From Eledone cirrhosa (Eukaryota), in contig OZ024755.1 of the NCBI GenBank assembly GCA_964016885.1, forward strand, positions 5,208,001 through 5,272,000: 64,000 bases of DNA, read 5' to 3'. How positions within the stretch are numbered: the stretch's first letter is position 1; every line of letters begins with the position of its first letter. This document shows, piece by piece, positions 17,734-55,302 of the stretch. The notes below the pieces were generated by a model. That model had not been told where the DNA came from, made no database searches, and saw only the letters and a list, made by a program, of their open reading frames with translations. The position numbers and the translations under genes are program-made.

Positions 17734-17871
17734 AGTAATAATAATAAATGTGAAGACTAAAATCCAAAGAGGGCTCGATAAGGATAAATATATATCAAAT
17801 TTTGGTTTCAGAGGATCCCGTTAAGGGTGAAAGCAGCGATTCTTTGCTTCAAGTTTAATCTGTTATTTCAA
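17734..17871. mobile_element. Rearranged short (TA)n-embedded element with hammerhead-like core; sibling of 55063-55302
   Basis: 17734-17800 matches the reverse complement of ~55237-55302; 17803-17871 matches 55142-55210 directly. Confidence 0.7.
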
Positions 17872-18971
17872 TATATATATATATATATATATATATATAT
17901 ATATGTGCGTGTGTGTAAGCGAATGAGGTTTGGGATCTTGTAGATCGACTACCGATGTATATATACACATACATACTTTTGATACCATCCCGCCTTTGTT
18001 TTTTTGTTTCTCAACTGTAAGAAGTACTAGATACTTCCCCTAGTCTGGCATGGCTTACGAGCTCTATACGGACGTTTAAATTTATTAAATAAATAAATAC
18101 ATAAATAAATAGGAAATAAACACTGACAACAGATTATTTAAAACGTTGTGTTCCTAAACCAAAATATGACATATTTTTGTCACTTTTTTTTGGCTGTGGT
18201 TATATTTTATTCTCGTTCCAGCCCCGGCCCCACCCCATATTCCCATGTTCTTCGGAACCAGGGTAAGTCAGTATTACTTGTTTTTTCGCGGGAAGCCGAT
18301 ATTTTAGCGATTCGCACAGCTGCGTACATTGTTATCTGTGTTACGTGTAACGACACTAAATGTTTCCCCTCCACTAAAATTATTACCAGATGTACTACAC
18401 TACTAATTCAGTCTCAGGGACCCGCCCGCCCTGCCAACCCCAACACCATGTTTTTTTTTTGTTTTTTTTTTACTCCTTTAAAAAGGGGGCTGATCTTTTG
18501 CTTATATGAGAAGTCATTATTTCTTACAGACCCGTATTCGAAAGATGTCATAGTTGACCGAGTTTTTCCTTTTACATATTCCATCAACGAATATAAAATC
18601 ACATGAAAAAAACCCAACAGGAAAAGTCAAACTTTTGGCTCGGAATAAAAAACTGGTTTTAACGGAAATCTAAGCGTTTTAAGTGTTTTTTCTTCCTCTC
18701 CTTATGTCTTTACTGCGGCTTAGTGGTAAGGGCGTTGGACTTACGATCATAACGTCGTGGGTTCGTAGTAAGGGTTTTGGACTTACGATCATAAGCTCGT
18801 GGGTTCGATTCCTGGGTTGGAGGAGGAAATGAAAGACAGGGAATTGGTAGCGGGGTATGTAGAAGATAGGATAAAATGGAGAAATTTGTCATAGGGGCAT
18901 GGATGGCTGACCCCTGCTTTACCAAGGAAAATTGTTATTAACACTGAATGACTGAAACTTTTGTAGATTAC

Positions 18972-19160
18972 TGGAGGATTGGCAGTATCGGTAGAGAGTC
19001 GGACGCCATGCTTTCCAGCGTAGTTACGTCCCTTTACGGTCTGAGTTCAAATCCCGCCGAGGTTAACTTTGCCTTTCATCCTTACGGGGTCGATAAAATA
19101 AAAGTACCAGTAATACACTGGGATAATTGCTGGCCTTGTGCCAAAAGTAGAAACAATTAT
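18972..19160 (+). mobile_element. Young tRNA-SINE with probable 8-bp TSD
   Basis: Family consensus; TAGATTAC at 18964-18971 and 19161-19168. Confidence 0.85.
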
Positions 19161-19628
19161 TAGATTACGTCGACATTTTGTATGTCTCTGTCTCTCTCTG
19201 TCGGTCTGTCTGTCTCTCTCTTTGTCTGTCTCTGTCTCTCTAGCTGCCTCTCTCTCTCTCTGCCCCCCCCCCCTCCAAGAAACGTGTTATAATTTAAAGC
19301 CCTTCCCTTTTTACTGAAACAATGACAAAACCGTTTTATTTTTTTTTTATTCCATCTTCTATATTCTATATTATATAACGCAGTTTATCCATTTCTAAAA
19401 TAATAGTTGTAACCTTTGTAGACAAAATCTAGGATAGAGAACAAGGAGTAAAACAACAAACCAACTTGTTTAGAAAACAACTATTGTCTCTGTTGACAGA
19501 CGTCAACATTTCAACCCAGCCTTTACCAATAACATTCACAGAAATAGGTTTCTTATTCATAAAAAAAATTTGAAGCTAGCAAAACAATATAAACTTAACA
19601 TTAACTATTATTATTATTGTTATTGGGA

Positions 19629-20168
19629 AGGGCGGTGGATTGGCAGTATCGGTAGAGGGTCGGACACCATGCTAGGGCGGTGGATTGGCAGTATCGGTAG
19701 AGGGTGGACACAATGCTTTGCGTCATATAGTTACGATCCTTTACGTTCTGAATTCAAATCCCGCCGAGGTTAACTTTGCCTTTCATCCTTACGGGGGTTG
19801 ATAAAATAAAGTACCAGTAATGTACTGGGTGATTGCTGGCCTTGTGCCAAAAGTAGAAACAATTATTATTATTGTTATTGGAAAGGGCGGTGGTTTTGCA
19901 GAATCGGTAGAGGGTCGGACACCATGCTAGGGCGGTGGATTGGCAGAATCGGTAGAGGGTCGGACAATAGTTACGATTCTTTACGTTCTGAGTTCAAATC
20001 CCGCCGAGTAACGATTTCACGACACCCCCACTTCAAATTGCAATCTCTTAGCTTTGCCTATCACCCTTACAAGGGTCGATGAAATAAAGTACCAGTAATG
20101 CACTGGGGTAAATTTAATCGGACCCCCACCCCCCAATTGTTGGTCTTGTGTCTAAATTAGAAACCATT
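19629..20168 (+). mobile_element. Two tandem tRNA-SINE copies, each with a duplicated 5' head
   Basis: The GGGCGGTGG..GCAG(T/A)ATCGGTAGAGGG head occurs twice at the start of each copy (from 19629 and 19884). Confidence 0.85.
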
Positions 20169-53089: not shown

Positions 53090-54090
53090 GGACTGTGACA
53101 AACTCTCTAGTGTTGGTGCCATGATAATGATAAAAATGCTCTCAGTAGACTCTGTAAAGTGGTTGGAGCTAGGTCTAGGATTGTGACAAACTCTCTAGTA
53201 TTGGTGCCACGATAAAAATGCTCTCAGTAGACTCTGTAAAATGGTTGGAGCTAGGTCTAGGATTGTGACGAACTCTCTAGTGTTGGTGCCATGATAAAAA
53301 TGCTCTCAGTAGACTCTGTAAAGTGGTTGGAGCTAGGTCTAGGATTGTGACAAACTCTCTAGTATTGGTGCCACGATAAAAATGCTCTCAGTAGACTCTG
53401 TAAAATGGTTGGAGCTAGGTCTAGGATTGTGACGAACTCTCTAGTGTTGGTGCCATGATAAAAATGCTCTCAGTAGACTCTGTAAAGTGGTTGGAGCTAG
53501 GTCTAGGATTGTGACAAACTTTCTAGTGTTGGTGCCACGATAAAAATGCTCTCAGTAGACTCTGTAAAATGGTTGGAGCTAGGTCTAGGATTGTGACGAA
53601 CTCTCTAGTGTTGGTGCCATGATAAAAATGCTCTCAGTAGACTCTGTAAAGTGGTTGGAGCTAGGTCTAGGATTGTGACAAACTCTCTAGTATTGGTGCC
53701 ATGATAAAAATGCTCTCAGTAAACTCTGTAAAGTGGTTGGAGCTAGGTCTAGGATTGTGACAAACTCTCTAGTATTGGTGCCATGATAAAAATGCTCTCA
53801 GTAGACTCTGTAAAATGGTTGGAGCTAGGTCTAGGATTGTGACGAACTCTCTAGTGTTGGTGCCATGATAAAAATGCTCTCAGTAGACTCTGTAAAGTGG
53901 TTGGAGCTAGGTCTAGGATTGTGACAAACTTTCTAGTGTTGGTGCCACGATAAAAATGCTCTCAGTAGACTCTGTAAAATGGTTGGAGCTAGGTCTAGGA
54001 TTGTGACAAACTCTCTAGTATTGGTGCCATGATAAAAATGCACTCAGTAAAGTGGTTGGCACTATGAATGACATCCAGCCTTAGAAACTA
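53090..54090 (+). repeat. 82-bp satellite, ~12 units, SINE-derived, with dimeric higher-order pattern
   Basis: Period 82 (53161 to 53243); unit contains TTGGTGCCA(C/T)GATAAAAATGCTCTCAGTAGACTCTGTAAA(A/G)TGGTTGG, homologous to the SINE tail at 5132-5180. Confidence 0.9.
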
Positions 54091-54194
54091 TTCTGATTGT
54101 GGAAGGTATGAACAAGATTTGGTAATATGATCTATCTAGTCTCACAGAATGATAATCTGACCAACTCATATATTTCTATGTAATATTTTATAAG

Positions 54195-54537
54195 GCCCCC
54201 GTCGGTTACTAATGACCATGGGTTTTACACCTAGAAAGTTTCCCCCTGAGGCACAATCCTGGGTAAGGTTTGTTTGTAGAAGAGCTGCAGTCAATCATGT
54301 ATACCAGTTTTCCCTCTCCATGCTCCCAATGTTGTCCAAGGGAAAGGCAAGGGCTGATACAGCTTGGTACCAGTAACATTGCAAGTCATTTCTACAGATG
54401 AATGAACTGGAGCAATGTGAAATAAAGTGTCTTGCTCAAGGACACAAAGAACACAACACATCACCCAGTCCAAGACTCAAACTCACAACCTCTCAATTGC
54501 AAGCCCAACACGCTAACCACTAAGCCATGCACCTTCA
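54195..54537 (-). mobile_element. tRNA/CORE-like SINE with long tail
   Basis: GGAGCAATGTGAAATAAAGTGTCTTGCTCAAGGACAC...CTAACCACTAAGCCATGCACC. Confidence 0.7.
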
Positions 54538-55062
54538 CATACCTAATATATAGATATGAAAATATCAAAAGATTACTGATGATTCTTCAATATTAATTGG
54601 TGTCTTGTTGAAGCAATCAGCAACTCTGATATTCAAATAATTAGATTGAAATAAATAGATTCAAATGTGTAACCCTCTAACTTTTCTCTCAGAGCTTGGA
54701 GAGTTCCCTGTTTGAGTTGCCTTCCTTAAGCTGAAGTACCTCTTGATAAACATTTAATTAGGCTACATCTAATTATAAAGTTCCATCTTTGCTGTTTAAC
54801 AGATTCTTAATTGTTCATATTCAGGAGGCGAACTTTTAGAGAGAGAGAGAGAGAGAGACATCCTTTGATAAGTTTGTCATCAAATTAAAACCTTAATTAC
54901 CTCAATTACCAAATGTCTTACTAGTAACATTATTCATAAACACACACACACACATCATCATCATTTTACATTTCTTGTTCCACACCTTGCATAGGTTGGA
55001 CATGTCCTTCTCCAACCCATGATATATATATATATATATATTATATATATATATATATATAT

Positions 55063-55302
55063 ATATTTATTAAAATAACAGATTAAAGTTTAAGCAAAGA
55101 ATTGCTGCTTTCACCCTTAACGGGATCTTCTGAAACTCAGAAGTTTCAGAAGATCCCGTTAAGGGTGAAAGCAGCGATTCTTTGCTTAAACTTTAATCTG
55201 TTATTTTAATAAATATTTGCTCTATGGTTCTTATATATTTGATATATATTTTCCTTATCGAGCCCTCTTTGGATTTTAGTCTTCAATTTTATTATTATTA
55301 CT
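55063..55302 (+). mobile_element. (TA)n-embedded fold-back element (75-bp arms, 4-nt loop) with hammerhead-like fold at 55140-55194
   Basis: Inverted repeat 55063-55137 / 55142-55216; GAAGTTT-CAGAAGA-tCCC gttaa GGGt-GAAAGCA..TGCTT-AAACTTT. Confidence 0.7.

Follow-up and report, generated by a model that had tools for sequence, protein, structure and literature searches.

What are the short noncoding inserts that lie scattered, many of them folded back on themselves, through the TA repeats of the Eledone cirrhosa genome, and how does their inverted layout arise? The question is raised by a 64,000-nucleotide (nt) stretch of this genome (assembly GCA_964016885.1, contig OZ024755.1, positions 5,208,001 to 5,272,000; here called the window, with coordinates counted from its first nucleotide). 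The original prediction, made from the sequence of the window, listed eight such inserts, all of which are present; it ascribed a type I hammerhead ribozyme fold to each and proposed that they form a possibly uncatalogued set of elements, either derived from Penelope-like elements (PLEs) or retrozyme-like, that self-prime into hairpins. Based on sequence comparisons, we put the probability at roughly 0.9 that the inserts are 5'-truncated end pieces of several families of Hydra-clade PLEs in (TA)n.

The hammerhead motifs are real as sequence motifs. A type I descriptor (stem I of at least 4 bp, CnGAnGA, stem II, GAAA, stem III, and NUH) matched eight cores in the window, compared with 0.7 ± 0.9 (maximum of 3) in 30 local dinucleotide shuffles. 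These matches comprise five of the eight predicted sites (17804, 22070, 34368, 34786, and 55140), mirror copies of two of them (33441–33487 for 34368 and 55086–55138 for 55140), and a motif at 41065–41135 on the minus strand; a relaxed scan yielded an additional motif at 48748–48789 on the plus strand. The last two are intact and had been overlooked. The prediction that every insert follows the hammerhead order held for the five sites matched directly and for 27032, which has the full core and aligns with family C, with compensatory pairs; this site was not caught by the descriptor because its stem I is interrupted, with only 2 proximal bp followed by an internal loop. It did not hold for 24699 and 32872, which have lost the core. 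The insert at 24699–24800 fails the descriptor because the first core letters (CTGAAGA in the family) are gone at the fold-back junction between its arms, and the core at 32872–33040 reads CTAGTGA. The latter insert was thought to be a sibling of 22070 but is a broken chimera that has only 22 nt around stem III in common with family A copies. The type I core with its three helices and NUH triplet is present in these motifs, and its position 4 varies (U, C, or A). By analogy, cleavage by such ribozymes would be weak and assisted by dimerization or by protein.

Each of the seven families for which we searched (A to G) is a dispersed repeat. The search of 3.0 Gb in 1,796 contigs returned 2,340 (A), 2,113 (B), 2,997 (C), 1,079 (D), 1,135 (E), 1,038 (F), and 181 (G) matches, figures that represent first-look candidates rather than copy numbers, with 40 scored per family. 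Family D is very young, with 41 matches that span the 525-nt query and whose identity rounds to 100%. Families B and C are homologous, and in an alignment of 14 copies the core letters were invariant and 90% of cells paired. Between these two families, 9 of 29 pairs were altered on both sides, which bears on the stem covariation whose absence the original prediction had named as a refutation; because they are mostly single changes between two families, the double changes count as few events. Among 36 motif variants, each found in at least two loci and with several per family, stem III was fully self-complementary in most, and the pairs of stem I, whose pairing was built into the descriptor, were highly varied.

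The open reading frames (ORFs) that these families accompany point to their origin. ORFs encoding reverse transcriptase (RT) and a putative endonuclease lie upstream of the hammerhead, as a PLE origin had led the original prediction to suggest; the linkage is direct for families A, C, D, E, and G, passes through a sister subfamily for F, and is indirect for B. On the sense strand, the hammerhead is preceded by the C terminus of this endonuclease in 7 of 18 loci for family D, 2 of 19 for E, 3 of 25 for A, and 2 of 19 for G, in four extended loci of family C (L215, L216, L217, and L227), and in 15 of 30 loci of the F sister subfamily, to which the window F copy is 94% identical. The family D locus L081 contains an intact 832-codon ORF with a hammerhead-bearing pseudo-long terminal repeat (pLTR) 253 nt upstream and a second hammerhead 1,453 nt downstream, giving a pLTR-ORF-pLTR layout, and additionally carries an inverted truncated copy. 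The tail of family D is the leader that leads into the ORF start, and its unit measures 4,201 nt from hammerhead to hammerhead. Family B is tied to Hydra elements by its homology to C and by locus L254, where no TA run separates the B tail from a Hydra ORF, which it enters at residue 213. Locus L257 was not counted as a further B linkage, as its Hydra ORF lies downstream, beyond a TA run. For family C, a degenerate Neptune-like ORF upstream of one copy (L108) was considered as the source; it was seen at this single locus and was rejected because the common upstream sequence of C reaches Hydra-type ORFs in four loci. The ORF at L217:6277–8890, a candidate for the N terminus of C, belongs to another Hydra-type family.

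The encoded proteins carry RWR, DKT, CxCX5C, CxxC-E, and N-CxH motifs, and CCHH is absent. The CxCX5C linkers read CNCRANRTC (D), CNCRNRADC (E), CNCRIKNKC (G), CNCQNKEAC (A), CSCRKPEAC (F sister subfamily), and CNCCVGEQC (C). The D protein contains a YRDD RT motif, with RVRWR and HADKT in its N-terminal part; for the other window families, no N terminus could be read in a single frame. The D protein was modeled with AlphaFold (mean predicted local distance difference test [pLDDT] score of 86). The top three Foldseek matches of the model were telomerase RTs (E value of about 1e-8), and its VIA-align Z score of 16.6 was a tie between the RT of a diversity-generating retroelement and a telomerase. 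The C-terminal domain shows the motif VIY...YVG...F..R, and PF01541 was matched in two of six homologues scanned (E value of 1e-5). The closest named protein matches were from an argonaut and a bivalve. N-rich, low-confidence stretches occur in the ORFs at L081:2355–4850 and L226:4365–5216 (both on the minus strand), at residues 496–547 and 643–686 of the D protein; rotifer Penelopes have been described with N-rich inserts that resemble them (PMC3846280).

Several results weigh against the hammerhead reading or against this placement. No hammerhead family was among the best 150 of 344 Rfam matches to the window, which contained only microRNA-type hairpins below the cut-offs and one tRNA-like match. 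The genome-wide Hammerhead_1 search that had been suggested as a check did return 18 matches, but none lies inside the window, and the 10 that were retrieved form a family (H) absent from it. Monomer folding energies were ordinary (z of −1.9 to +1.3 versus shuffles for nine window sequences), as expected of weak, dimer-type motifs. No ORF was found upstream of family B in 25 loci or in four longer regions. In the L081 protein, neither an RT nor a GIY-YIG domain was detected by Pfam, a sequence profile search of the PDB with this protein gave no match, and a single-sequence model of the endonuclease domain (pLDDT score of 45) was too poor to search, leaving the GIY-YIG fold unconfirmed. The D unit of about 4.2 kb exceeds the "generally <3 kb" given for Hydra elements, a tendency rather than a criterion (PMC8557442), and the Hydra placement rests on motifs, layout, and ORF linkage rather than on a tree with reference PLEs.

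The ends of the copies were surveyed in 257 search-derived loci (815,376 bp), excluding window loci and loci requested by place, which gave 448 distinct 3' ends from eight families (A to G and H). Within 10 nt of (TA)≥4 lay 295 of these ends, compared with 10.4% of 20,000 random positions, and the same was true for 82 of 127 ends of bystander copies, those that were not the search match itself; the predicted preference for TA repeats is supported. The ends were bimodal, with two fixed points per family past the cleavage site: +28 and +89 for A, +50 and +145 for B, +62 and +134 for C, +47 and +211 for D, +29 and +115 for E (with a minor third at +62), +42 and +102 for F, and +53 and +134 for G. 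We refer to these as short and long ends; they fall in A/T-rich sequence of the leader preceding the ORF. Family H, represented by the Hammerhead_1 matches at L031 to L040, has a two-end pattern like that of A to G. Only 7 of 607 raw matches stop 7 nt or less from the cleavage site, and 394 of the 448 copies begin more than 8 nt upstream of it; since copies span the cleavage site and few end at it, the template was not a ribozyme-cut linear end. Most copies are only 100 to 400 nt long, and their 5' ends are ragged, extending continuously into the 3' untranslated region (UTR) and the ORF.

The window inserts follow this pattern of ends. As had been proposed, most have an inverted copy (six of eight, the exceptions being 27032 and 32872) and most adjoin (TA)n (seven of eight, the exception being 27032). 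Beginning at a (TA)n run, a family E long-end arm on the minus strand (17734–17800) consists of tail only (+50 to +115 past the cleavage site; 96% identity to the E reference copy); the E short-end arm beside it on the plus strand (17802–17870; −47 to +29) contains a decayed hammerhead (17804–17860; core, CAGAGGA), and the two arms have no sequence in common. A second family E insert pairs a short-end arm (55063–55137, minus strand; hammerhead, 55086–55138) with a long-end arm (55142–55302, plus strand; hammerhead, 55140–55194, with core CAGAAGA and a CUU triplet) whose tail runs up to a (TA)n run. In the family A insert, the long-end arm (21948–22062, minus strand; left boundary approximate) holds stem III, stem I', and the tail, and the short-end arm (22056–22130, plus strand), with an intact hammerhead at 22070–22120 (CTGATGA; GUA triplet), extends further 5'. 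Family F is represented by a short-end arm at 24699–24764 (minus strand), whose core is cut at the junction (family stem III, ACAATTGT; GUU triplet), and a long-end arm at 24762–24860 (plus strand; −1 to +97). Families D and C lie next to each other at 33398–35007 with a short TA run between them. The D insert joins a short-end arm with 530 nt of 3' UTR and pLTR (33398–33927, minus strand; hammerhead, 33441–33487) to a long-end arm (33928–34621, plus strand) that contains a hammerhead at 34368–34414 (core, CCGAAGA; stem III, ACAGCTGT) and a tail at 34458–34621 and matches the copy carrying the 832-codon ORF at 99.8% identity. The C insert joins a short-end arm (34627–34764, minus strand; −85 to +62) to a long-end arm (34764–35007, plus strand) with a long stem II in its hammerhead (34786–34882). 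Public contigs over 33250–35100 showed high-copy coverage, with no piece across the palindrome center, a result that is neutral about that junction. The chimeric remnant at 32872–33040 (minus strand), 360 nt from this cluster, lies between TA runs and joins A-like stems II and III with a broken core to a second, orphan core (CTGATGA...GAAATACGTAT) that lacks stem I; no further copy of this chimera was found among the fetched loci. As the 33398–35007 cluster illustrates, TA runs serve as landing pads for successive insertions.

Single copies are found for families B (27034–27132, plus strand; a hammerhead with a long stem II and the interrupted stem I, no inverted arm, and no (TA)n run) and G (40939–41178, minus strand; a long-end copy between TA runs with a hammerhead at 41065–41135 and stem III ATGCGCAT). 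The intact motif at 48748–48789 (plus strand; stem III, AGAACT; cleavage U) belongs to another repeat family with 28 local matches among the fetched loci; some of these lie close to ORF fragments of non-Hydra PLEs. The segments at 16231–16290 and 35745–35810 (both on the plus strand) are decayed copies of a family with a minimal hammerhead in L172, L273, and L005, where ACGT stands in place of helix III ("min-HHR" type). The segment at 26264–26360 is a fragment of an abundant fold-back family in TA repeats, with 88 local matches among the fetched loci, that is often joined at a GTCGAAAC motif. By descriptor, the flanks of the fetched loci (L001 to L289) contain at least a dozen further hammerhead families, with stem III sequences that include ATATATAT, ATATGTAT, ACTAGT, ACCACTGGT, ATGATCAT, and AGTACT.

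Other origins for inserts of this kind can be envisaged. Short palindromes flanked by TA resemble Tc1/mariner-type miniature inverted-repeat transposable elements, and the ordinary monomer folding and the lack of an Rfam hammerhead among the listed window matches would suit a chance pattern, or foldback DNA transposons whose terminal inverted repeats form the arms. We consider this explanation very improbable. Descriptor matches far exceed their number in shuffled sequence, the core letters are invariant and B-C pairs have changed on both sides, the arms are of variable length and have two distinct end points, and the linkage to RT ORFs already contradicts it. Alternatively, the short modules could be nonautonomous and retrozyme-like, replicating through small circular RNAs produced by self-cleavage, with PLE enzymes acting in trans. 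The small size of most copies fits this idea, and a circular template would allow copies to span the cleavage site; furthermore, animal retrozymes have been reported as derived from PLE pLTRs (bioRxiv 10.64898/2026.07.22.740005). However, retrozymes are tandem units of 150 to 450 bp (PMC7229834), whereas the copies studied here have no fixed unit length and have ragged 5' ends that run on into the 3' UTR and ORF, and no tandem hammerhead array was among the Tandem Repeats Finder rows listed for the window. Replication of this kind is unlikely, and the inserts are not retrozymes: for six of the seven families, one of them via its sister subfamily, they represent the 3' ends of coding Hydra-clade PLEs. 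The "uncatalogued" part of the original prediction fares no better, the Hydra clade having been published with an octopus member.

If the inserts are pieces of Hydra-clade PLEs, their inverted layout still has to be accounted for. Among 96 inverted pairs, 84 combined a long with a short end, 1 had two short ends, 1 had two long ends, and 10 had an unclassified end, so that long plus short accounted for 84 of 86 classifiable pairs (binomial P of 5e-23; random choice would give about half). Bystander pairs gave 17 of 22, with none of one kind, and unpaired copies had 112 long, 111 short, and 19 other ends. Such pairs are also predicted if priming occurs once, at the long end, the cDNA or an antisense RNA then folds back on itself as a template, and the second end is cut back to the short site by the endonuclease. 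This model draws on published hypotheses of self-priming, inferred from palindromic junctions (PMC3846280), and of endonuclease resolution, to which the tail has been attributed (PMC8557442). In that case the 5' reach of the long arm must equal or exceed that of the short arm. After 7 pairs were dropped, 77 remained in which the insertion is tiled by the arms. In these, the long arm extended further in 20 and the arms were equal within 15 nt in 28, whereas the short arm extended more than 15 nt further in 26 and the arms did not overlap in 3. The 29 violating pairs include 4 of 16 in the young families D and E (under about 2% divergence) and 25 of 61 in older families, and in the window the inserts at 17734–17870 (the nonoverlapping case), 22070, and 24699 also break the snap-back geometry. 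In addition, solo copies are short as often as long, so the short site works without inversion. On the other side, 48 of the 77 pairs are compatible with snap-back copying, and a short arm that reaches further could also have been produced later by asymmetric deletion or flipping of the palindrome center; such cases are rarer in the young families than in the older ones. In 46 of 55 pairs, the two arms of an insertion resembled each other more than random copies of the family did. The likeness of arms fits one RNA or source gene but also snap-back or conversion and does not separate the models. We judge snap-back formation to be the less likely account. The hairpin self-priming of the original prediction had precedent in a published hypothesis, but the fixed long-plus-short pairing and the 29 geometries fit two priming events better.

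Because those 29 pairs do not fit simple self-priming, the simplest account of the fold-backs is likely that the target primed two starts, with each cut strand providing one, and we judge the chance that the inverted layout arose in this way to be somewhat better than even. According to such a scheme, the element's endonuclease would nick both strands of (TA)n, and each target 3' end would prime cDNA at an internal A/U-rich site of uncleaved or circular RNA, with one start site near and one far past the ribozyme. Both cDNAs would stop early and then be joined at their 3' ends, and a single priming event would leave a solo copy with either end type. A stricter version, toward which we lean only slightly, is obligate twin priming, in which the cut strands would always use different (near and far) start sites and each fold-back would have one tailed arm. 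With eight families showing the long-plus-short rule, one of them young and with an intact ORF, the formation of inverted PLE structures becomes directly testable.

These elements closely resemble the Hydra clade as defined by Craig et al. in 2021 through RWK-like, DKT, CxCX5C, and CxxC/CxH motifs (the latter around E and N) and no CCHH (PMC8557442). That study already presented hammerhead-bearing Hydra elements that target (TA)n, including Hydra-1_Obim of Octopus bimaculoides; in its supplement, (TA)n is the listed target for 24 of 27 families, and the hammerheads given are similar in style to those described here. Shared features include a single ORF with RT and a putative C-terminal endonuclease, a canonical type I hammerhead near the 3' end, (TA)n, and an inverted 5'-truncated copy with a tail on one end; in Hydra-clade hammerheads, as in those of the window, stem II is often flanked by an additional U on either side, and the cleavage site is often U or A. 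No window hammerhead matches the Hydra-1_Obim motif in File S2 of that study (compared by eye), and similarity to the printed Hydra-1_Obim protein was likewise judged by eye. The elements described here differ in their longer 3' UTRs (0.2 to 2.0 kb), in tails of 60 to 164 nt versus the published 30 to 40 bp, in the 60-nt stem II of B and C, in the CCGA and CAGA cores of D and E, and in the presence of at least seven families in one 64-kb window. The 2026 repeat annotation of Octopus vulgaris reports 31 recently active Penelope-like families, and its main text mentions neither "Hydra" nor "hammerhead" (PMC13282606).

The proposed mechanism has its nearest parallel in the Poseidon element PAc of Anolis carolinensis (Frangieh et al. 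2024; PMC11167929), whose protein cuts and extends both target strands at A+T-rich sites in vitro, uses uncleaved RNA as its template, and has two internal start sites that delimit the tail. PAc belongs to another clade and starts within the ORF, in an AC-rich stem-loop that has no homology to the target, in contrast to the A/T-rich leader here; the portions of that report covered contain no long-plus-short rule for inverted pairs. A tail on one end of the inverted unit has been described qualitatively (PMC8557442 and PMC3846280), and we found no count of the long-plus-short rule in the open literature, although subscription papers and preprint supplements outside the search may hold one. The PLE hammerheads of Cervera and de la Peña (2014; PMC4209133) are also type I, with a short or palindromic helix III and a dimer-type architecture, and occur as many families per genome, mostly as solo motifs from truncated PLEs, with opposite-strand pairs 100 to 700 bp apart. 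The present motifs differ in the 4- to 5-bp stem III of A and E, which could close in the monomer, and in a G10.1-C11.1 pair that is often replaced by U-U or A-U. Metazoan retrozymes without long terminal repeats share the type I hammerhead, the noncoding appearance, and a relation to PLE pLTRs (PMC7229834; bioRxiv 10.64898/2026.07.22.740005), but they are fixed-length tandem units expressed as circles, whereas the window copies are ragged truncations of coding elements, either solo or inverted.

The window contains additional repeats. Copies of one short interspersed repeat occur on both strands at about 25 places between 1770 and 61960 (e.g., 4237–4357, 19040–19162, and 40700–40864); a tRNA-like Rfam match lies at 1977–2049 (36.8 bits), and the repeat is likely a tRNA-derived short interspersed nuclear element. 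Frames at 12552–13393, also present in L011, resemble in style the C terminus of a non-LTR retrotransposon (LSAESIV..., FLC.VA..KE.IW). A degenerate (TA)n/(TATG)n array of 3.6 kb occupies 57846–61432, and other long arrays lie at 35856–36569, 43239–43826 (53-bp unit), 51104–52149, and 53085–54049 (82-bp unit).

In sum, the elements are new families of the known Hydra clade, and since they are of an expected, published kind, the finding mainly corrects annotation: the short hammerhead palindromes in this genome's TA repeats are remains of PLEs and do not constitute a new class of RNA element. The near-absolute pairing of long with short ends connects the inverted structures, whose formation Craig et al. 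named, together with the microsatellite bias, as unresolved (PMC8557442), with the two start sites of Frangieh et al. (PMC11167929) and yields a testable prediction. Family D, whose copies are 99.8 to 100% identical and which retains an intact ORF, offers immediate starting material for an in vitro system of the Hydra clade. If true, two-site twin priming would make every inverted PLE insertion carry exactly one tailed arm.

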